A stretch of 64,000 nucleotides of DNA. Origin: a bacterium (lineage in GTDB: Bacteria; Zhuqueibacterota; Zhuqueibacteria; Residuimicrobiales; Krinioviventaceae). Both the position numbers and the translations under genes were made by a program. The stretch spans positions 3,168,001 to 3,232,000 of the forward strand of contig CAXXMD010000003.1 in the NCBI GenBank assembly GCA_963675755.2, read 5' to 3'. This document shows positions 25,019-37,177 of this stretch, in pieces (the stretch's first letter is position 1; every line of letters begins with the position of its first letter). The notes below the pieces were generated by a model. It was not told the DNA's origin and made no database searches. It worked only from the letters and a program-made list of their open reading frames with translations.

Positions 25019-26305
25019 TTATTCCAGTTTAAAATGCTTGCGAATATCCTGTAGTTCATCTTCATTGATGGCAACCAGACCGCCCAGGCTCTTGGCATCG
25101 ATGAGGGAGCGGGCGCTGAATTCAGCCACTTCCAGCCGGTCAAAGGCTTCCAGCAGCGAGCTGCCAACAGTCAGAATGGCATCATGCTCCAGCAAAATAA
25201 CCGGGGTGCTCTTGTTGAGCATTTTTGAGATTTTGCCTTCCTGTGTAAACTGGTCTCCAAAGGGGATCTTTGGGATGTCCCGCAGCAAAATATAACTCTC
25301 TGGAATGGAGCGCGTATCAAAGTTGTCTTCAGTAATGCTGAATGCCATGGCATTTGGCGCCTGGGCTGAGATGATGGCATTGATCTCGGGATGATCGCGA
25401 TAGATGCGGTCGTGCAGCAGTACGGAGCGGCTGGGCAGTTTACCGCGCTCGCGCTTGCGATCGTTGATCAATACAATATCCTGAACGTCCAGCAAGCGTC
25501 TGTCAACACCGGTTGGGGTAATCACAAAACTGTTCTGATGCACACGTACCGAAACTACACCTTCTGTACTGTTCATGATCTGCTGATCATAAGCTCGGTG
25601 CACAATTTCGCAGATATGGCGTCTATAGGCTTTTTCTCGATTGCTGCGGTTTTCAGGATCAAACTCTACCAGGTAATGCTTGGACTGGTGAAACAGAGCA
25701 AGCTGGTCGTCTGTGAGCTCGCGATATTTTCCCAGAACGTTAGCGCGTATTGCCAGACGTGCGCAAAAATCAAGGGTCTCAAAACGGTGGAACGCTTCCA
25801 TAATGCTGCCGCCGCCGCAAACCACGCCGTGGTTTTCCATAATTATAGAGTCGTTACCGTCTTTGAAAGACTGGGCAATCAACTCTCCCAGCTTGTCGCT
25901 GCCGGGCAGGGCATAGGGAGCATAGCCAATGTTACCGCAAATATCATCCGCTTGCGGCAAAATGCGGGTTGAGGGCTTTTGCCGGGCAATGCTGAATGAT
26001 ACCAGCGCACTGGGGTGTGCATGCACAATACCACGGATATCGGGACGGTTATCATAAATCGCTTTGTGAAACGGAAACTCGGAAGAAGGTTTGTGAAGAC
26101 CCTTGATCTCGCCGTCCGCTTTAACGCGCACAATATCGTCCCATTCCAGCTTGCCTTTATCAACACCGGCGGGAGTAATCCAAATATCTCCATTTTCATC
26201 CCGAATCGAGAGGTTGCCGCCAGAAGTCGTTGTCATTCCATATCTGTATACACGCTGCATAAACAAAGTCAGCAGTTCTTTGGGGTGGGTTATATCGTAA
26301 TACAC
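25019..26305 (-). CDS. Class II aldolase/adducin family protein with two tandem aldolase domains
   Basis: GGNLS, PSSEFPFH, VHAHP and MENHG in domain 1; EGVVS, PSRSVLLH, ISAQA and LEHDA in domain 2. Confidence 0.88.
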   Translation of the reverse strand: MYYDITHPKELLTLFMQRVYRYGMTTTSGGNLSIRDENGDIWITPAGVDKGKLEWDDIVRVKADGEIKGLHKPSSEFPFHKAIYDNRPDIRGIVHAHPSALVSFSIARQKPSTRILPQADDICGNIGYAPYALPGSDKLGELIAQSFKDGNDSIIMENHGVVCGGGSIMEAFHRFETLDFCARLAIRANVLGKYRELTDDQLALFHQSKHYLVEFDPENRSNREKAYRRHICEIVHRAYDQQIMNSTEGVVSVRVHQNSFVITPTGVDRRLLDVQDIVLINDRKRERGKLPSRSVLLHDRIYRDHPEINAIISAQAPNAMAFSITEDNFDTRSIPESYILLRDIPKIPFGDQFTQEGKISKMLNKSTPVILLEHDAILTVGSSLLEAFDRLEVAEFSARSLIDAKSLGGLVAINEDELQDIRKHFKLE

Positions 26306-26613: not shown

Positions 26614-26714
26614 GTCGTGTTCCAAAAATCGGCAGATGCCGTTTAAAAGTTACAAGACTATGAAAAACAGTGGATTATATATCTGCTGAATTCACTAAAA
26701 ACCTGGAGTTTAAA

Positions 26715-28019
26715 GTGAAACAACACATTGCAGGATTTTTAATTTTACTGATGGGATTATTTGTACTGTTTTCCTGTACAAAGAAATATCCCGACCAAAC
26801 CCAGATGGATTTGGCAATTGGTGGAGATGGGTGTACCAGCTGTCATATGAATACCGATCTGTTAAAGGAGGTAGCTACCCCTCAGGAAGATACCGAGGGT
26901 GATGCGGGCGAAGGCTGAGGCGGGGAAGTGGCTCCGTTGGAGACATGGCAGATGGTTTCAATTAAAGAATCTTTTCTAAGTACCTCACATGGTAAACTGG
27001 GCTGTACAGCTTGTCACTTTGGTAATGCCAAAGCAAAGACAAAAGAAGAAGCCCACGTAGACGACTTTGTTGCAAGTCCCAGTATGCAGCCGGATGTATA
27101 TTGTGAAGGTTGTCATGCTGAAATTACCAATGATCATAATGGTAGTTTGCACAAAAATCTCGATGGATATTACAAACGTATTGAAAAGCGCCTGGGTTAT
27201 GATATTTCAGGTGATGAAATGATTGTTGGCGAATTCAATAAAGAATGCGGCAAGTGTCATGCTAGCTGCGGACAGTGTCACGTTTCCCGACCTGTATCCG
27301 TTAAAGGTGGTTTCCTGGATGGACACACCTTCCAGCGTGAACCGACCATGAAAGACAATTGTACAGCATGTCATGGCAGTCGTGTTGGCGCCGAATTCTT
27401 TGGTGAGAATGAAGGCATGAGAGCAGACGTTCATTGGATCCCCAATGTAAAACGTTGTGTTTTCTGTCACGATGGCAATTCTATGCATAGTTCAACGGAT
27501 GGTGCAACCCACCGCTATGAAGACCAGGATATGACCCGTTGTGAAGACTGCCATATGGATGACAAAGAAGCTAATGAATATCATCTTACGCACTGGAAAG
27601 ATGACGGCGGATTGTCATGCCAGGTTTGTCATTCTCAGGACTATAAGAACTGTAATAGCTGCCATACCGGTGGCGCGGGAATTACCGGCAGTTCGTATAT
27701 GGATTTCAAGATTGCCAAGAACCCGATCAAGACAGATTACCGGAACTATGATGTTGTAACGGTACGTCATATTCCAATTTCTCGTGATACCTATACAAGC
27801 TGGGGTATTACTGACTTGCCGAATTACAATGTTGAACCCACCTGGAAATATGCAACACCGCATAATATTCAGCGTTGGACAGCTCGTACAGATACAACCG
27901 GTAGTACAGCTTGTTATGAAAAGTGTCATAATTCAGATTATTACCTGACGCTTGAAGACTTGTTTGAAGAAGAAGTTGATGCAAACAAGGATTACGTATT
28001 AACACGAAATGATAACTAG
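26715..28019 (+). CDS. Predicted selenocysteine-containing multiheme cytochrome c lipoprotein (Sec68; 10 CXXCH + 1 CX3CH)
   Basis: GTG start with SD GGAG and lipobox LFSC; CTSCH precedes the in-frame TGA at 26916-26918; the frame continues GGC GGG GAA GTG into the 363-aa multiheme ORF, which has no export signal of its own. Confidence 0.8.
26919..26946 (+). promoter_or_regulatory. Candidate bacterial SECIS element
   Basis: GTG-G-CTCC-GTT-GGAG-A-CAT hairpin; the apical loop starts with GU, 17 nt after the UGA. Confidence 0.6.
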
Positions 28020-28055: not shown

Positions 28056-29060
28056 ATGTTAAAGAGAACACTTTTATTGTTACTGGGTTTGTCACTGGTC
28101 TTGTTCCTGTTTGGTTGTAGCGATGATGATGACAGTCCTGCTGAAACCGAAACTGTAGATGAATTTAGTTTAATGACAGATGTTGGTGATGTATATTTTA
28201 CAGATTATACCACAACCGGTGGCAATGCTGTGAATGTTTCTATTTCTGCTGTATTCCCGATTTTGGCTGATGGCGATGCATCAAATGATCCATTGATCCT
28301 TGATTATCGTTCAGCTGCTGACTATGCAACCGGTCACTTGACAGGTGCTATCAATATTTCATTGGGAAGTTTGATGGATAAAATTGAAGATGGTACCATA
28401 ACCAAAGACAAGACCGTTTTGAACGTGTGTTATACCGGTCAAACCGCAAGTTTTGCTACCAGTATTTTGAATCTGTTGGGTTATGAAGCAGAAAACCTAC
28501 TTTATGGTATGTGTGGTGTTACTACAGATGCTTCTGTCAATGGTACTGACAAATGGAGCTCTCAGGTTGCATCTGATGAATTTGCAGCGCAATTGGTTGC
28601 TTCTGTCTCTACTACTACTACTGAATATGATTTTCCGTCAATTTCTACAAGCCAAACAACTGCAGAAGAAGTTATTACAGAACAATTTAAATCTGTAGGT
28701 GCAAGTGGTTGGACTATTTCTGCCGGAGATGTTTTTGCTAATCCTTCCGGTTATTTTGTCATCAATTACTGGCCACAGGCTGAATACGAAGCACCGGGTC
28801 ATATTCCGGGTGCATATTGTTTCCCACCCAAATCTTCTTTGCAGAAAGCAGAAATGTTGAAACTGCTGCCTACTGACAAAACAATCGTTGTATATTGCTA
28901 TACAGGTCAAACCTCTGCTCAGGTTACTGCTTATCTGCGTATGTTGGGTTATGACGCGAAAAGCTTGTTGTATGGTGTAAATGGTTTTGCTTATAATGCA
29001 TTAGCCGGCCATAAATACTCTGCACCAGCAGACGATTACTCAGCAATTATCGTAAAATAA
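28056..29060 (+). CDS. Tandem rhodanese-domain lipoprotein (sulfurtransferase)
   Basis: Lipobox LFGC; ILDYRSAADYATGHLTGAINI and GHIPGA; two active-site loops CYTGQTA and CYTGQTS. Confidence 0.88.
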   Translation: MLKRTLLLLLGLSLVLFLFGCSDDDDSPAETETVDEFSLMTDVGDVYFTDYTTTGGNAVNVSISAVFPILADGDASNDPLILDYRSAADYATGHLTGAINISLGSLMDKIEDGTITKDKTVLNVCYTGQTASFATSILNLLGYEAENLLYGMCGVTTDASVNGTDKWSSQVASDEFAAQLVASVSTTTTEYDFPSISTSQTTAEEVITEQFKSVGASGWTISAGDVFANPSGYFVINYWPQAEYEAPGHIPGAYCFPPKSSLQKAEMLKLLPTDKTIVVYCYTGQTSAQVTAYLRMLGYDAKSLLYGVNGFAYNALAGHKYSAPADDYSAIIVK

Positions 29061-29115: not shown

Positions 29116-29181
29116 TTTTTTATATATTATCATTCAGTATAATCAAATATGCGCGGTTCCAAATATATCGCGGGAAAAATT

Positions 29182-30360
29182 ATGAAAAAAATCATTCCAA
29201 TTCTGGTGCTGTTATCAAGTATGTGCCTGCAAGCACAGGGCCTGGTATTTCACGGAAAGGTCAGGAACTCTGTTTACAGTTACGAGAGTGATGAACAGCA
29301 TAATCGGGCTTATCAGTATTTGCGTTTCAGCCTTGCAACTGCTGATAAAAAGTTCCGTATCAATTCATCTGTACGTGCGCTTACAGATTTTAACGAAACC
29401 ATAGACAGCGATCTTCGTTTCAAAGCTTATGCGTTGAATCTTGAAGCCAACGATCTTTTAGGCCGGGTAGATTTAAAGCTGGGACGCCAGTTCTTACATC
29501 CTGGAACTGTTTTAGGCGCTCTCGATGGTCTGTCTGGCTCTGTCAAGATCAATAAAATGTTTTCTGTAGAGGGTTATGCCGGAACAGAATCACATTTTGA
29601 TCGTATTTTCAAGGTCTACGAGCTGGATGACAGTTTTGTTGCCGGTGGTTTGTTTAATGTTAAAAATCTGTATTCAACCAATCTGCAGCTTTTATATTTG
29701 CATAAATCCAATGTTGATACAACCTTGTTTCAACTCGCTGGTTTAAATGTCACCAATTATACTTTGGATAAAACGCATTTTAATGTTCAGGCGCATTATG
29801 ATATGCAAAATGAACGTATGCATCGCTTGATTGCTTCTGTTCGTCAGGAGTTGTTGGGCAATATGGCGGTTAACCTCAGGTATAAAAGCCAATATCCCCA
29901 GGTTTACACAAACTCGTTTTTTTCTATTTTTTCCCCCAAGGCTTATAAACAATATCATGCAGGGCTGAGTTACGAATTTTATAAAGATTATTATATCAGT
30001 ACGCAATACCAGCTGGTCCAGTTTGATGATGGTAACGCAAACAAGGTGTTTTTTACTGTAAATGGAATGAATGCCAGTGCCGGAGTTTTATATGAAAGCG
30101 GTTACGCAGGCGATCAATTATCTCTTATGTTTGATTATGCATATGAAGTGATTGAAAATCTCTATGCGTCAATTAATCTTGATTATTCGAAATACAGAAC
30201 AGAAGAATTGTATGAATATGATAATCAATTGGCAAACGCGTTGCGCTTGAATTATCGACTCAACAAGAACTGGATCATTGATTTGGAATATCAATGGTTG
30301 AATAACAAATTTACAGAAAATGATTCCCGTTTTCTGAATCATATTACGTATAGATGGTAA
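29182..30360 (+). CDS. Outer-membrane beta-barrel (porin) protein
   Basis: Signal peptide, alternating amphipathic strands, LKLGRQF...LDG motif, C-terminal aromatic ITYRW. Confidence 0.78.
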   Translation: MKKIIPILVLLSSMCLQAQGLVFHGKVRNSVYSYESDEQHNRAYQYLRFSLATADKKFRINSSVRALTDFNETIDSDLRFKAYALNLEANDLLGRVDLKLGRQFLHPGTVLGALDGLSGSVKINKMFSVEGYAGTESHFDRIFKVYELDDSFVAGGLFNVKNLYSTNLQLLYLHKSNVDTTLFQLAGLNVTNYTLDKTHFNVQAHYDMQNERMHRLIASVRQELLGNMAVNLRYKSQYPQVYTNSFFSIFSPKAYKQYHAGLSYEFYKDYYISTQYQLVQFDDGNANKVFFTVNGMNASAGVLYESGYAGDQLSLMFDYAYEVIENLYASINLDYSKYRTEELYEYDNQLANALRLNYRLNKNWIIDLEYQWLNNKFTENDSRFLNHITYRW

Positions 30361-30375
30361 TTGAAGGATTTTCCA

Positions 30376-31242
30376 ATGAAATATAAAATTGGTATTTTAG
30401 CATTATTCCTGTTGGTTTCTGTTTCTTTGGGACAGAATGTAGAACTGATCTTTTCACATCAGTTCCATGCTGTAGATGTTGAGGCCGAATGTTCTGCTTG
30501 TCACGTTGCGGCTGACACCAGTACAATGGCAATGCATAATCTGCTTCCTGATATGGAGACCTGTTATACCTGTCATGATGAAGATACGGATTGTACCGTA
30601 TGTCACAAAGACCCTGACAATGCTGTCCCGTATCCGCGTATTGAGCAATATATTGCCAAGTTTCCACACGCAACACATGTGGAAAATGAGGTTGCATGCG
30701 AAACATGCCATGCCGGTGTAGCAGCAAGCAGCAATATTCTTGACAGTCATTTGCCTGATATGGGTGCATGTATGAATTGTCATACTGAACTTGAACAGCC
30801 GGACTATTGTATTACCTGCCATGCAGAATCTGAAGATTTGATGCCAGCTGACCATAAACTGGACTGGACAAAATCGCATGGATTTGCAGCACAGGCTGAT
30901 CAGGAATGTTCAATTTGTCATACAGAAGACCAGTGTCTTGATTGTCACCAGGGTGACAACCTTGATCACAAAGTGCACCCGTTGAATTTTGTCAACAATC
31001 ATGCTATCTTTGCCAAGGGCAACAAGGACAACTGTTTGACCTGTCATGAAGAACTGCTGTCATGTGTCGATTGTCATCAACAGGAACTGGTAATGCCCGC
31101 AAACCATTCCAGTGCAGGATGGTCCAACTTTACAACCGGTGGCCGCCATGCACGTGAAGCCCTTCAGGATCTCGATTCCTGTGTTAGTTGTCATAATGAC
31201 GCTGTAGGTGATCCGGTTTGTTTGACCTGTCATCAACAATAA
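30376..31242 (+). CDS. Periplasmic dodecaheme cytochrome c (cytochrome c3/c7-like repeats)
   Basis: Signal peptide; 12 CXXCH motifs counted; FSHQFH and FPHATH distal-His motifs. Confidence 0.9.
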   Translation: MKYKIGILALFLLVSVSLGQNVELIFSHQFHAVDVEAECSACHVAADTSTMAMHNLLPDMETCYTCHDEDTDCTVCHKDPDNAVPYPRIEQYIAKFPHATHVENEVACETCHAGVAASSNILDSHLPDMGACMNCHTELEQPDYCITCHAESEDLMPADHKLDWTKSHGFAAQADQECSICHTEDQCLDCHQGDNLDHKVHPLNFVNNHAIFAKGNKDNCLTCHEELLSCVDCHQQELVMPANHSSAGWSNFTTGGRHAREALQDLDSCVSCHNDAVGDPVCLTCHQQ

Positions 31243-32177: not shown

Positions 32178-33530
32178 ATGGATGCGCTATATCTTTCTCG
32201 ATTACAGTTTGCGCTAACAATTGCGTTCCATTATCTGTTTCCTCCCATTTCTATCGGTCTGGGTTTATTACTGGTATTCATGGAGGGGATGTATTTAAAA
32301 ACCAAAAATCAGTTGTATCACCGGATGACCCGCTTTTGGGTTAAGGTTTTCGGACTTGTGTTCGCACTGGGTGTTGCATCTGGTATTGTGATGGAGTTCC
32401 AGTTTGGTACAAACTGGTCTACCTATTCACGCTTTGTGGGTGATGTCTTTGGCAGTGCGCTTGCTGCTGAAGGTATTTTCGCTTTTTTCCTGGAATCCGG
32501 GTTCCTCGCAGTTTTGTTATTCGGCTGGAATAAGGTTAAACCCAGAACTCATTTCTTTTCAACAATTATGGTGGCGTTTGGTGCGCATTTCAGTGCCGTT
32601 TGGATTGTTGTTGCAAATTCATGGCAGCAAACTCCGGCGGGTTATCATATTGTAGAAACTGCTAATGGTGCACGCGCTGAAATTGTAGACTTTTGGGCCA
32701 TGCTTTTTAATCCATCAACCGTTGACAGATTGAGTCATACACTTATGGGAGCATGGCAGGCCGGTGCGTTCTTTGTGATCAGTGTAAGTGCATGGTATTT
32801 AATTAAAAACAAACATGTTGATTTTGCCAAGGCAGGACTTAAAATAGCTCTTATTTTTGCAGCAGCAGCATCCATGCTGCAATTGGTTACAGGACATTCA
32901 AGTGCTGTTACCGTATCTGAAACACAGCCAGCCAAGCTTGCTGCAATGGAAGCTCATTTTGATGAAATGGCACCTGCAGATCTCTATCTTTTTGGTTGGG
33001 TGAATTCAGATAATCAACGAGTTAATTTTGGTGTTCGCATACCGGGTATGCTCAGTTTTCTGGTTTACGGTGATTCAAACAAACCATTAAAAGGTTTAAA
33101 TGCATTCCCTGAGGATGAACATCCGCCTGTAAATGTGGTGTTTCAAGCATACCATATTATGGTAGCAGTGGGTATGTTTCTCATCCTGATCTCCTGGTTG
33201 GGATTGGTATTATTATGGAAAGATAAAGTCTATAAAACCAGATGGTTGTTATGGGTGTATGTTTTTTCAGTATTGGGCCCTCAAATTGCCAATCAACTTG
33301 GGTGGATAACTGCTGAAGTTGGCAGACAACCCTGGATTGTTTATGGTTTATTGAAAACCAAGGATGCTTATTCTCCGGTTGTTAGTGGCGGACAGGTTTT
33401 AACATCAATTATTCTTTTCGGATTTATTTATCTATTATTGTTTGCCTTGTTTGTCTATTTGCTGAATGAAAAAATCAAAAACGGACCGGAGCTTGAGGAG
33501 AAAACCATAGAGGAGGGACATTTGGCATGA
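32178..33530 (+). CDS. cydA: Cytochrome bd ubiquinol oxidase subunit I
   Basis: [50 protein letters not shown]. Confidence 0.97.
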
Positions 33531-34555
33531 GTTTAGTATTTGATTTAAATACAATCTGGTTCTTCCTGGTGGGTATACTTTTAACCGGGTATGCAATTCT
33601 TGATGGATTTGATTTGGGAATTGGTGCATTGCACCTTTTTGCTGAAACTGATCATGATCGTAGAATAATGCTCAACTCTATTGGACCCATCTGGGATGGA
33701 AATGAAGTATGGCTGGTTACCGGGGGTGGTGCATTGTTTGCCGCTTTTCCCGAAGTTTATGCTACTGCATTTTCAGGCTTTTATATGGCCCTTATGTTAT
33801 TGTTATTTAGTCTCATATTCCGGGCTGTTGCTATAGACTTTCGCAGCAAGCAGTCTTCAAAAGTTTGGCGTAAAACCTGGGATATCAGTTTTACTATTAG
33901 TAGCATAGTTGCTTCGTTGCTTATTGGTACTGCACTTGGAAATGTAGCGTGGGGTGTGCCCTTGGACGCAAGTCACGAGTATGCCGGTTCTTTCTGGACG
34001 CTTTTGAATCCCTATTCTTTATTGGTAGGTGTTTTGGTTGTTGTATTGTTCATGATGCATGGTGCTCTTTATGGTATCCTCAAAACTGAAGGGGATTTGC
34101 AGAAAAAATTGGGTAAATTGTTCAGAACCAATTTTGTCTTGTTTGGCATTGGTTATATAGTTGTAACCATTGCAACATTATTGTTTGCTGATAATATTAC
34201 TGAACATTACAAATCAAGTCCTGCTTTGATGGTTTTTCCTGTTATTAATGTTTTATTGATTGTAAATGTTTGGTGGCAGCACCATAGAGGTAAAGACCTT
34301 GCAGCGTTCTTATCTTCTTGCTTTACGATACTGTTGCTTATGTTGATCTTTGGGTTGGGTATTTATCCGGATATGTTGTATTCTAATCCTGTTGCCGGTA
34401 ATACACTGGATATTTACAATGCCGCATCTTCACAAAAAACTTTAAAAATCATGCTGACAATCGCTTTGATCGGTATGCCCTTTGTGATTATGTATACTTC
34501 AACTATTTTTTGGATATTCAGAGGTAAGGTCAAGCTGGATTCTAGTAGTTATTAA
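33527..34555 (+). CDS. cydB: Cytochrome bd ubiquinol oxidase subunit II
   Basis: LDGFDLGIG, IGPIWDGNEVWL; ATGA overlap with cydA. Confidence 0.97.
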   Translation: MSLVFDLNTIWFFLVGILLTGYAILDGFDLGIGALHLFAETDHDRRIMLNSIGPIWDGNEVWLVTGGGALFAAFPEVYATAFSGFYMALMLLLFSLIFRAVAIDFRSKQSSKVWRKTWDISFTISSIVASLLIGTALGNVAWGVPLDASHEYAGSFWTLLNPYSLLVGVLVVVLFMMHGALYGILKTEGDLQKKLGKLFRTNFVLFGIGYIVVTIATLLFADNITEHYKSSPALMVFPVINVLLIVNVWWQHHRGKDLAAFLSSCFTILLLMLIFGLGIYPDMLYSNPVAGNTLDIYNAASSQKTLKIMLTIALIGMPFVIMYTSTIFWIFRGKVKLDSSSY

Positions 34556-34559
34556 ATTC

Positions 34560-34590
34560 AAGCGCATCAGGTTTCTGGTGCGCTTTTTTT
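34560..34590. terminator. Terminator between convergent genes
   Basis: AAGCGCATCAG-GTTT-CTGGTGCGCTT plus a T-tract. Confidence 0.75.
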
Positions 34591-35851
34591 ATGCAATGCT
34601 GCTATTACCTGTTGTATCTATCTCTTGTTGACAATCCGGGCACAAACCCTGGCTGAACCGGGCTTTGGTATGACTAGCCATATAATTTTCAACTTCGTGC
34701 CAGTAGCCTTTATCATCCCGTATTTTTTTACAACTTGCACAAATAGGCAAAAGCCCGCTCAATTCTTTGACTTCATTAAGGGTTTTTGAAAGTTCATCAA
34801 CCAGTTTTTTCTGTTCTTTTTCAAGCTCTTTTTGTTCTGTGATATTGTTTAATATAACCAGTTGACCAAAATTCTGCTTTCCCTTCTTGTCGACCAAAGT
34901 AATTTTAATATCGTAAAATGTTGATTCGGGATTGTTATGTTCCAGTTCTGTTCTTATAGGGGTCTGTTTTTGGATCAATTCGAGTAACGCAGGCCACGCT
35001 GTTAAAACTGTATTGATATTTTTTCCCAAAAGATCATCAGTATAGTCAAGAATGTTATAGATAGCAGGATTTGCATCTACAATGCGGTCTTTGGAGTCAA
35101 TGACAAGCAAACCTTCTGCCATGGTATCAACCAGATTGTGACGTGCAATAGGTAAGAGTATAAAAATTTTAAATCTGTAAATGGTATAAAATAAAATTAC
35201 ACCGGATATCATCATGGTTAGTGGAGTTATATCAAGCCCAGGTAATGGATTCAGTTTAAAAACATAAATTATATTACCAATAAATGACATAAAAGAAGCA
35301 ACCAGAATTAAAATGGTTTGGCTTTTATATTTACCTTTAAACCGTTTGGTTGCAATTACAAGGTTGTAAATTCCCAGTGTAATGATTGTATATGTAAAAG
35401 CGATAAAAATCCAAAAAAACAATCCATAGGTGTAATAAACTCCCTTTGTTGATTCTACTATTTTCAGACTTTTCCAAATTAAATGATGGTAATTATTTGA
35501 TAAAACAAGTAAAAAAGTAATTAAAGGAATTGTAAAAATAAGGATATAAAAACGTCTATTATATTTTTTCGTTTTTTTATTATATTGCAAGGCAAACATG
35601 AAAAAGAATACCGCAGTAACACTGATACCAATATAAGAGATTTGTGACCACAATAATTTTAAATCCAAAGTTGTTGCCGCAATTTTAAAAGCATTACCAA
35701 AAGACCAAATAGTAACAGCAAATTCCATCAAGCCCAGGTATTTGATTTCAAGGTTTACACAACGACGGCATATTACTACTGCAACGAGTAAAGACAAGGC
35801 TGCACCAGCCAAATAGATGTTACTAAAAATTGTAAACTGGTAGTCTGGCAA
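34589..35851 (-). CDS. HisKA_7TM + PAS sensor with C-terminal Cys-rich domain, no kinase domain
   Basis: 7 TM segments with SYIG and TNxxH-like motifs; PAS (DRIVDANPA); tail LLPICASCKKIRDDKGYW...GLCPDC. Confidence 0.8.
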   Translation of the reverse strand: MPDYQFTIFSNIYLAGAALSLLVAVVICRRCVNLEIKYLGLMEFAVTIWSFGNAFKIAATTLDLKLLWSQISYIGISVTAVFFFMFALQYNKKTKKYNRRFYILIFTIPLITFLLVLSNNYHHLIWKSLKIVESTKGVYYTYGLFFWIFIAFTYTIITLGIYNLVIATKRFKGKYKSQTILILVASFMSFIGNIIYVFKLNPLPGLDITPLTMMISGVILFYTIYRFKIFILLPIARHNLVDTMAEGLLVIDSKDRIVDANPAIYNILDYTDDLLGKNINTVLTAWPALLELIQKQTPIRTELEHNNPESTFYDIKITLVDKKGKQNFGQLVILNNITEQKELEKEQKKLVDELSKTLNEVKELSGLLPICASCKKIRDDKGYWHEVENYMASHTKARFSQGLCPDCQQEIDTTGNSSIA

Positions 35852-35917: not shown

Positions 35918-37177
35918 TCAGGTTTTCGGAAATTCCGGGTAAAGACGGTTTCTACACTCCGGGCAGATGCCATGAGTAAAGTGAGCGTCAGAATGATTCA
36001 TGACAAAAGCTTCAACCTGGTGCCAATAGCCTTTATCATCACGGATTTTTTTACACTTGCCGCAAATTGGCAATAATCCACTCAACTGTTTTACAGCATG
36101 AATAGCGTTTTGTAATTCGCTGATCAGTTTTTCCTGTTCCTTCGTAATGATAACTCTGGGTGTTATATCGTCCAGAATAACGAGTTTGCCAAAAGATACC
36201 TGGTCTCTTTGACGGATTTTATTAATTCTTACTTGATAGTATCTTTCATCACCATCTATATTTAAAGAAATGGTTTGATTGTTTGCATCTTTTTCGATAA
36301 TAGTTAAAAGCTCTGGTATTGATTTTAATTTTTCATTTATTTGATAGCCTATTAATTTTTTTTGAGGGATATTGAAAAGTTTGATCATAACAGGATTTAT
36401 ATCAACAATTCTATCCAAATCGTCCAACGCTAAAAGTCCGTTTTGCAATTCATCTACCAATTGATGTCTGGCTATGGGCACAAGGTCAAATAGCTTGTAT
36501 TTTGTAACCGAAATAAAAAAGATCAAACCCGTAAATATCATGCCTATGGGAGCAAAATCCAGATTGAGGGTTGGATTTATATTAAGGACGTACATTAAAT
36601 TGCCAATTACCGGTATAATTGTGGCAATTACCAAAGCAATAATTTGGTTTTTGTAAAATTGAGGGAATTTAAAAAAAGATTTAAAAACCAGTATATATGA
36701 TATGATAATCAAAATATAACTATACACAGCATTAATCCAATACAAAGGTCCATGATAGTATTTTGCAATATTATTCTGTGGATTAATTTCAATCATAGTC
36801 CAAAAAAGTGTGTAATTCTCTTTATAGAAAATATTGAACAAGGTAATCGTTGGAATGATCAAAAGTATTGCCACAGTTTTAATGTTTATAATATAATGTT
36901 TTTGGGTAAAGGCAAGTGCAAATAGAAAAAATAATAACGGTGATGTAACAATACCCAGATAGGAAAATTGAGACCAAAGTATTTTTTGTTCTATACCTGT
37001 TCCCGCAACCTCGAATCCAACACATACAGCCCAAAAGGCTACTGAAAACTCTAGTGCTGCTAAATATCGACTTTCCTGAATTTGTCTTTTTTTTAATAGA
37101 AGGCCAATTACAAAAAGAGCAAATGCAGCCGAATAAAAATAAATGTTGCTCAATATTGAAAAATTATAATGTTCCAT
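35918..37177 (-). CDS. Paralogous HisKA_7TM + PAS sensor with C-terminal Cys-rich domain
   Basis: Same architecture; tail LLPICGKCKKIRDDKGYW...HGICPEC. Confidence 0.8.
   Translation of the reverse strand: MEHYNFSILSNIYFYSAAFALFVIGLLLKKRQIQESRYLAALEFSVAFWAVCVGFEVAGTGIEQKILWSQFSYLGIVTSPLLFFLFALAFTQKHYIINIKTVAILLIIPTITLFNIFYKENYTLFWTMIEINPQNNIAKYYHGPLYWINAVYSYILIIISYILVFKSFFKFPQFYKNQIIALVIATIIPVIGNLMYVLNINPTLNLDFAPIGMIFTGLIFFISVTKYKLFDLVPIARHQLVDELQNGLLALDDLDRIVDINPVMIKLFNIPQKKLIGYQINEKLKSIPELLTIIEKDANNQTISLNIDGDERYYQVRINKIRQRDQVSFGKLVILDDITPRVIITKEQEKLISELQNAIHAVKQLSGLLPICGKCKKIRDDKGYWHQVEAFVMNHSDAHFTHGICPECRNRLYPEFPKT

Follow-up and report, generated by a model that had tools for sequence, protein, structure and literature searches.

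A probable selenocysteine-containing 11-heme cytochrome c lipoprotein with a tandem rhodanese partner in a member of the Zhuqueibacterota

The stretch of DNA analysed here (the window) comprises 64,000 nucleotides of contig CAXXMD010000003.1 (positions 3,168,001 to 3,232,000 of the forward strand; assembly GCA_963675755.2), from a bacterium of the family Krinioviventaceae in the phylum Zhuqueibacterota. At positions 26715 to 28019 it holds a gene that an open reading frame (ORF) caller cuts in two at a TGA codon, and that very probably encodes a single multiheme cytochrome c with a selenocysteine (Sec, U) at residue 68. The gene and its parts, including a candidate selenocysteine insertion sequence (SECIS), are as follows.

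26705 to 26708, forward strand: Shine-Dalgarno-like GGAG, 6 nt upstream of the GTG start at 26715 (seen in the sequence; function predicted)
26715 to 28019, forward strand: single gene whose 434-residue product is a lipoprotein cytochrome c carrying 11 heme motifs and, probably, Sec68 (one frame with one TGA; orthologs read through the same codon)
26715 to 26777, forward strand: signal peptide with lipobox L-F-S-C, Cys21 (26775-26777) being the predicted lipidated residue
26832 to 26846, forward strand: heme motif 1, CTSCH, residues 40-44, ahead of the Sec codon (invariant in 36 sequences)
26916 to 26918, forward strand: UGA codon probably read as selenocysteine, residue 68, in the motif G-E-G-U-G-G (from TGA/Cys conservation in relatives)
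26928 to 26946, forward strand: candidate bacterial SECIS with a 7-bp stem GTGGCTC/GAGACAT and a 5-nt loop CGTTG, 9 nt after the UGA (from covariation)
27003 to 27929, forward strand: heme motifs 2-11 (nine CXXCH, and CYEKCH at 27912-27929) and nine conserved non-motif His

The frame from 26715 to 28019 has a single internal stop, the TGA, and ends at a TAG (28017-28019), while the mechanical ORF list gives two pieces, 26670..26918 and 26928..28019. An earlier interpretation of this DNA made from its letters alone (the sequence-only reading) had proposed that the two same-frame halves form one protein of 434 codons with the UGA as residue 68, and translation of the frame bears this out. The Shine-Dalgarno element, the LFSC lipobox and the one CXXCH that it assigned to the upstream piece are all found there, and no export signal was found in the piece downstream of the TGA, as it had also stated. 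Attachment of c-type hemes requires export. The protein contains ten CXXCH motifs, at residues 40, 97, 130, 178, 185, 216, 248, 276, 302 and 313, and the CX3CH variant CYEKCH at 400-405, with one site upstream of the TGA and ten downstream. The heme count, previously given as 10-11, is therefore exactly 11, the nine CXXCH and the CYEKCH of the downstream piece having been described correctly. With 11 motifs and a lipoprotein signal, the gene product has the several CXXCH and the export signal that characterise a multiheme cytochrome c, and it would be exported and lipid-anchored, with 11 covalently attached hemes.

These features are strongly conserved. Among 36 aligned full-length relatives all 11 heme motifs are invariant and Cys21 is kept in at least 90%, and at least 106 of a wider set of 107 sequences retain each of the ten motifs that follow the Sec site. 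Nine His outside the motifs (H92, 114, 146, 204, 240, 258, 290, 293 and 383) are at least 93% conserved in the wider set and a tenth, H352, is conserved at 88%; given the 11 motifs, at least one heme lacks a conserved His partner. R192, R223, R267 and R351 are conserved as well in the wider set. Neither set shows a conserved Cys besides those of the heme motifs, the lipobox and position 68, and residues 22-68 hold no conserved His or Met in the 36 sequences except H44 of heme motif 1. K332 was considered as a heme ligand, being invariant in the 36 sequences, yet was dropped since it is found in only 83 of the 107.

Relatives of the gene were found in 43 of 167 genomes of the phylum, at 46 places, 37 of which contain exactly one TGA. 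Thirty of these loci were fetched and inspected: 27 have the TGA within the motif [E/S]-[A/S]-G-E-G-U-G-G-x-V-x-x-[L/V]-E-[A/P]-W, two (L034 and L035) have Cys at the site, and one was not assessed. A scan of metagenome contigs returned at least 600 pattern matches, at least 570 of them encoding relatives; the best 80 loci were scored, giving 66 with TGA, nine with Cys (six TGC, three TGT), two with Ile (ATA) and three not assessable. Among full-length loci (n=110) the codon is TGA in 91, a Cys codon (TGC or TGT) in 17 and Ile in two, and a Gly or Trp codon occurs in none; Bacteroidales have G-G-C-G-G at all seven assessable loci. The TGA is kept at the homologous codon among relatives of 38-97% identity, with coding conservation on both sides, so its conservation is more than chance. 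Homologs thus show the TGA or Cys at G-x-G-[U/C]-G-G, flanked by conserved sequence, that the sequence-only reading expected, with a few Ile, Arg and Tyr exceptions. A FastTree phylogeny of 107 distinct sequences groups the Cys forms in one clade of 14 (support 1.0) and one nested pair (L034 and L035), with a minimum of four changes; midpoint rooting makes U the root state, the root itself being insecure. Two database relatives (P0150 and P0155) have a double Cys, G-E-C-C-G-G, and the two Ile loci of the metagenomes (L066 and L068) read G-[D/E]-G-I-[S/G]-G, with ATA for the Sec codon.

Sequencing error is very unlikely to explain the TGA, which stands both in a 97%-identical complete chromosome (L021) and in a contig of another study. 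The latter (run X4) spans the stretch with 154 differences and no indels, and no change at the TGA site is among the differences listed (40 of 155, in positional order, up to 27377); contigs from a second sample of one study also cover the site, unchanged. TGA terminates 11 of the 40 window ORFs of at least 250 residues and is therefore not reassigned in this organism, and an alternative genetic code was rejected, TGA being an ordinary stop here. The Sec genes that the proposal called for are in the genome, namely selA (580 bits), selB (371 bits), selD (377 bits) and a tRNA-Sec with anticodon TCA. Across the phylum selA was found in 130 of the 167 genomes, and in 31 of the 35 that have the TGA form, the four without it being 56-90% complete. 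The selD gene, which lies outside the window (locus L010; G000:C3:1425405-1426334, reverse strand), is itself a selenoprotein gene, with one in-frame TGA in the motif K-C-A-G-U-A-S-K-L.

The sequence-only reading had noted that bacterial Sec insertion uses a SECIS immediately 3′ of the UGA, and comparison of the relatives points to a covarying hairpin 9 nt after it. In a gapless alignment of the 48 nt from the TGA on (88 sequences, 86 distinct), the stem pairs columns 13-19 with 25-31. Among the distinct sequences 87% of the cells are paired, and five of the seven stem pairs show two-sided changes (40 cells), with compensated stems such as GTGCCTC/GAGGCAT, GTACCTC/GAGGTAT, GTGGCTC/GAGCCAT and GTGGTTC/GAACCAT. 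The covariation is 0.273 vs 0.142±0.013 in shuffled alignments, none of 500 of which reach it, this being a structure derived from the same sequences used to score it; as a control, sliding the partner columns gave at most 0.119. Loop positions G21 and T23 are invariant, and we take the position of the hairpin and its loop G/U to agree with bacterial SECIS models. At Cys-type loci only 1-4 of the seven stem positions pair, except in L034 (5/7) and L035 (7/7), and the Bacteroidales-type Cys forms lack the hairpin. L035, whose hairpin is still complete, is a recent conversion to Cys; the Ile form L068 also retains 7/7 pairing. An alternative structure from RNAalifold (columns 2-7 with 14-19) was rejected, its covariation being 0.071 vs 0.080 in shuffled alignments, 399 of 500 of which were as high, and an Rfam search gave only a chance small nucleolar RNA match (E=0.57). 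Taken with the conservation of the codon, this leaves us with little doubt, on comparative grounds, that UGA-68 is read as selenocysteine and that the gene is a real selenoprotein gene.

Named families account poorly for the protein. Pfam gives a generic Cytochrome_C7 match of 33 bits and NCBIfam only ExtM, at E=0.006. The models for cytochrome selenoprotein families were taken from those tabulated in a 2026 review (PMC13188914) and run against the genome: NF040886 (ExtKL/MccSep; cut-off 250 bits) and TIGR04315 (OTR family; cut-off 375 bits) do not match the gene at E<=10, and NF041027 (GSU2204 family) did not turn up in the NCBIfam scan of the gene. The result for NF040886 agrees with the earlier claim that the gene is distinct from ExtKL. 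A profile of the 36 full-length relatives finds one solved structure, Shewanella OTR (1sp3_A, E=3.4e-5, query 89-304), in an alignment that consists mostly of heme motifs and a D-V-H segment, and an AlphaFold2 model built from the same number of sequences has a mean predicted local distance difference test score (pLDDT) of 75. A true OTR-family gene, without any stop, lies elsewhere in the genome (G000:C3:241922-243166, forward strand; TIGR04315, 570 bits), followed by further cytochrome-like matches at 243733-244479.

The family is common in databases, where it has matches at E<=1e-30 in 183 clusters of 50% identity. The suspected mis-annotation was confirmed, given that 117 of the best 120 database proteins cover only the part after the TGA (72-84% of the query). 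All eight truncated pieces of TGA forms that were inspected start at or after the Sec site, and 43 of the best 150 representatives of the 50% clusters begin just past it. They are named 'hypothetical protein', 'cytochrome c family protein' or 'multiheme c-type cytochrome', and JGI labels several truncated relatives 'thiosulfate/3-mercaptopyruvate sulfurtransferase', which may be explained by the rhodanese-cytochrome fusions described below. Source names of the relatives include KSB1, Zixibacteria, Calditrichaceae and Gemmatimonadetes, and Bacteroidales as the Cys form, so that of the earlier claim of a distinct family in an FCB-type (Fibrobacterota-Chlorobiota-Bacteroidota) lineage the distinctness stands, and the distribution reaches well beyond one such lineage. 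One database relative (P0258) has three cell-wall-binding CWB2 repeats ahead of its cytochrome part, which suggests surface display in a monoderm. In the literature we found MccSep/ExtKL, the OTR family and GSU2204 as cytochrome selenoproteins, most subscription journals lying outside the search. No earlier description of the present family was found there, and the supplements of PMC13510729 (data S1 and S2) and of PMC13188914 might list members. Passages of PMC13490349 and PMC12545173 have no bearing on it, and passages of a KSB1 genome survey note selABD and make no mention of multiheme cytochromes or cytochrome c. As judged from these records and models, this is a widespread family that is nowhere annotated as a selenoprotein and is unrelated to ExtKL/MccSep and OTR, and the gene represents a new family within the recently established kind of selenocysteine multiheme cytochromes.

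The cytochrome gene is followed by three further genes of the same strand.

28056 to 29060, forward strand: partner gene, a lipoprotein with two rhodanese domains (Pfam Rhodanese, two stretches, E=4e-25)
28428 to 28448 and 28896 to 28916, forward strand: rhodanese catalytic loops CYTGQTA and CYTGQTS, both intact
29149 to 30360, forward strand: 403-residue protein of no named family (no Pfam or NCBIfam match), ending in YRW
30361 to 31242, forward strand: cytochrome c of 293 residues that carries 12 CXXCH motifs and a signal peptide not of the lipoprotein type

In the rhodanese partner C21 and the catalytic C125 and C281 are invariant among 29 orthologs. Next to the cytochrome gene there is a rhodanese gene in 38 of 39 genome loci, the remaining one being cut at a contig end. 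The same holds for 60 of the 80 metagenome loci, with the rhodanese gene downstream in 36 and upstream in 24; most of the others have short flanks. The two can also be fused: in L093 and L111 one ORF encodes a lipoprotein signal, two rhodanese domains, a linker, heme 1, the motif G-E-G-U-A-G and the remainder of the cytochrome, and contains no TGA except at the Sec site. A partial copy of this arrangement occurs in L129, and P0158 and P0185 have the fusion in reverse order, cytochrome before rhodanese. Comparison across these loci shows a link between the two proteins, the cytochrome acting together with a tandem rhodanese or in a single chain with it. The Ile loci L066 and L068 have no rhodanese within 3 kb downstream. 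The Cys-type KSB1 loci L034 and L035, which belong to genomes of the same genus (G087 and G086) and are the only Cys-type copies within the window's own family, have rhodanese genes cut short to pieces of 84 and 181 residues, and selA was not found in G086 (86% complete); this may reflect a decaying system or an assembly effect.

The 403-residue protein comes after the rhodanese gene in many loci of the phylum. The ESM-Atlas cluster closest to it is named 'Porin family protein' (score 0.99), which is no more than a lead, and it is probably an outer-membrane beta-barrel or porin. The 12-heme cytochrome would probably be periplasmic, and the gene order fits a porin-cytochrome outer-membrane conduit, the barrel in it being that Atlas lead. 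L024 (Bacteroidales) and L083 keep just the pair of cytochrome and rhodanese genes and lack the barrel and the second cytochrome. The mature N-terminus of the rhodanese partner, C-S-D-D-D-D, equals the Bacteroides fragilis lipoprotein export signal consensus, and C-E-K-D-E in the Bacteroidales partners fits C-X-K-(D/E)2 (PMC5080379). Because these N-termini match lipoprotein export signals, surface exposure is a lead, with a consensus that comes from Bacteroidota and may not hold outside them. Just past the convergent gene that closes the operon lie two overlapping membrane-protein genes (32178-33530 and 33527-34555, forward strand) that resemble cytochrome bd oxidase subunits I and II, and beyond them, on the reverse strand, two paralogous multi-pass membrane proteins of about 420 residues (34589-35851 and 35918-37177) that share the C-terminal motif L-S-G-L-L-P-I-C-x-x-C-K-K-I-R-D-D-K-G-Y-W-H. 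Upstream, a divergent gene (25019-26305, reverse strand) encodes a 428-residue protein apparently made of two class II aldolase/adducin-like halves.

The closest known parallel is MccSep/ExtKL of Geobacter sulfurreducens, characterised in 2026 as a Sec-containing five-heme polysulfide reductase in which U325 and a heme-ligating Cys reduce polysulfide (PMC13510729); its gene lies in the ext cluster, beside genes for the rhodanese-like lipoprotein ExtH, the porin-like ExtI and 10-12-heme cytochromes (PMC13510729, PMC5877670). Both proteins are periplasm-exported c-type multiheme cytochromes with one UGA-encoded Sec and a SECIS-like hairpin just after the UGA, both show Sec/Cys variation among homologs, both genes are split into two ORFs by annotation, and both have a rhodanese-like lipoprotein, a porin-like protein and 10-12-heme cytochromes encoded nearby. 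As the sequence-only reading had stated, MccSep has fewer hemes, five vs 11 here, and a later Sec (PMC13510729), and its family model misses the window gene. Its U325 lies in a D-G-U-P loop within a C-terminal Ig-like domain, whereas here Sec68 lies in an N-terminal G-E-G-U-G-G loop; MccSep is soluble, whereas the window cytochrome is a predicted lipoprotein that lacks a second conserved Cys for heme ligation and whose rhodanese is directly adjacent or fused. The taxa differ as well, MccSep being found mainly in Desulfobacterota and Nitrospirota and the present family in KSB1-type and other uncultured lineages. The OTR family, some members of which are listed as selenoproteins (PMC13188914), shares with our protein (by comparison with 1sp3) a run of heme motifs and the D-V-H segment, and both concern sulfur-compound redox chemistry; however, OTR has eight hemes vs 11, and the alignment begins only after the Sec loop and heme 1 of the window protein. 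TsdA and SoxAX, His/Cys heme enzymes cited in PMC13510729, offer a working analogy only, in that a chalcogen residue lies on or near a c-type heme; heme 2 of MccSep is His/Cys-ligated like the hemes of TsdA and SoxA (PMC13510729), and we found no sequence relationship of TsdA or SoxAX to the window cytochrome.

In Wolinella, the periplasmic rhodanese-like sulfur carrier Sud passes polysulfide sulfur to the reductase Psr. The pairing of a rhodanese-like carrier with a reductase resembles what we propose here, although Psr is a molybdoenzyme and not a heme selenoprotein. In our proposal SelA, SelB, SelD and tRNA-Sec, together with the hairpin at 26928-26946, would let UGA-68 be decoded as Sec. 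Polysulfide, elemental sulfur or thiosulfate would give up sulfane sulfur to the rhodanese, which would carry it as a cysteine persulfide; the selenolate of the cytochrome's glycine-rich loop would then attack the persulfide sulfur, and electrons passing through the 11-heme chain would release sulfide. The active site would consist of the heme without a His partner and the Sec on its flexible Gly-rich loop, with the second thiol supplied by the rhodanese, where MccSep uses its heme-ligating Cys; in this lineage the chain could be fed by the neighbouring 12-heme cytochrome and the porin-like barrel. We put the chances that the function is that of a rhodanese-coupled reductase of sulfane sulfur or polysulfide at about even. 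The overall picture, one Sec-containing 11-heme lipoprotein cytochrome partnered with a tandem rhodanese and likely reducing sulfane sulfur, we hold with good confidence.

Several observations weigh against this picture. Some relatives have neither Sec nor Cys at the site, namely the Ile loci L066 and L068, P0064 with Arg, P0054 without the motif, and P0185 with Tyr; as P0185 is one of the rhodanese fusions, a chalcogen residue is not strictly required for the rhodanese link. The cytochrome lacks a second conserved Cys, unlike MccSep, the Sec loop has a pLDDT <50 in the AlphaFold2 model, and the model matches no solved fold. The window copy of the hairpin carries one G·A mismatch, and the 60 nt after the UGA, folded alone, do no better than shuffles (z = -0.3); as the single-sequence fold is uninformative, the case for the hairpin is one of comparison, and because it overlaps conserved codons part of its conservation is due to protein coding. 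The operon contains no quinol dehydrogenase gene, and the enzyme may run as an oxidation rather than a reduction. No RNA run containing the stretch was found, a run labelled metatranscriptomic and 'probably DNA' (X7) covering only two 151-nt pieces of the rhodanese gene.

How the TGA is decoded leaves little room for alternatives. If it were a true stop, the locus would hold two genes, one for a monoheme lipoprotein of 67 residues and one for a decaheme protein of 363 residues; otherwise the gene would be a pseudogene or contain an assembly error. Gene callers do split the gene here and in the 117 database relatives mentioned above, and TGA is a normal stop in this genome. The downstream piece would, however, be without a signal peptide although its c-type hemes need export, and conservation runs across the TGA, Cys codons replace it in 17 of the 110 full-length loci, a covarying hairpin follows it, independent assemblies agree on it and the fusion ORFs of L093 and L111 have a TGA at the Sec site alone, all of which makes a true stop scarcely credible. 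We find it equally hard to believe that, without Sec machinery, the UGA is translated as Trp, Gly or Cys. A Gly would suit the Gly-rich stretch, and one database protein (P0159) has W at the site, possibly from a caller using another code; but non-TGA orthologs carry Cys and never Gly or Trp codons, TGA is not reassigned in the genome, the full Sec machinery is present, and TGA forms have retained the hairpin where Cys forms of the Bacteroidales type have lost it.

Other functions would leave the selenoprotein as it is. Sec68 could be the distal axial ligand of a heme (His/Sec), in an enzyme that, instead of reducing polysulfide, converts thiosulfate and tetrathionate into each other or oxidises reduced sulfur. 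Of the 11 hemes at least one is left without a conserved His partner, residues 22-68 offer no conserved His or Met but H44, a Cys, or the Tyr of P0185, could likewise ligate heme, and the sole solved relative by profile is OTR (1sp3_A); rhodanese, moreover, is classically a thiosulfate sulfurtransferase. Against this, the structural model yields no Sec-heme geometry, given the low confidence of the Sec loop, the Ile variants cannot ligate heme, the OTR similarity begins after the Sec loop and rests largely on heme motifs, and the OTR family model misses the gene. We therefore regard this alternative as doubtful. A more specific version, in which Sec68 is the sixth ligand of heme 1 (His/selenolate) and the cytochrome and rhodanese sit on the cell surface, fed by the porin and cytochrome, and respire solid sulfur outside the cell, appears unlikely; we know of no His/selenolate-ligated c-type heme in nature. 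The physiological substrate could also be selenite or tellurite, for detoxification or respiration, which is the role originally suggested for the ext cluster of Geobacter: extHIJKLMN is a parallel set of genes, with a rhodanese-like ExtH, a porin-like ExtI and multiheme cytochromes (PMC5877670), MccSep reduces selenite too (PMC13510729), and the weak NCBIfam match is to ExtM. Yet MccSep prefers polysulfide, with a roughly sevenfold higher Vmax/K0.5 (PMC13510729), the family is widespread in sediment and sludge metagenomes, where sulfur is presumably far commoner than selenium, and no ext family model matches the cytochrome above noise, which makes selenite or tellurite quite improbable.

Only in 2026 was a Sec multiheme cytochrome shown to be the long-sought sulfur reductase of Geobacter (PMC13510729), and since ExtKL/MccSep has been characterised such a protein is no longer unprecedented as a kind. 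The window gene represents a second family of this kind, one that is larger (11 hemes), physically coupled to a rhodanese, and common. The public protein records examined for its TGA forms are all truncated, so that metabolic reconstructions and selenoproteome censuses do not see the family. Its natural Sec, Cys and Ile variants make up a set for studying why selenium is used, and, if the proposed function is true, the family would be an unrecognised route of sulfur (or selenium) reduction in anoxic sediments and sludges.

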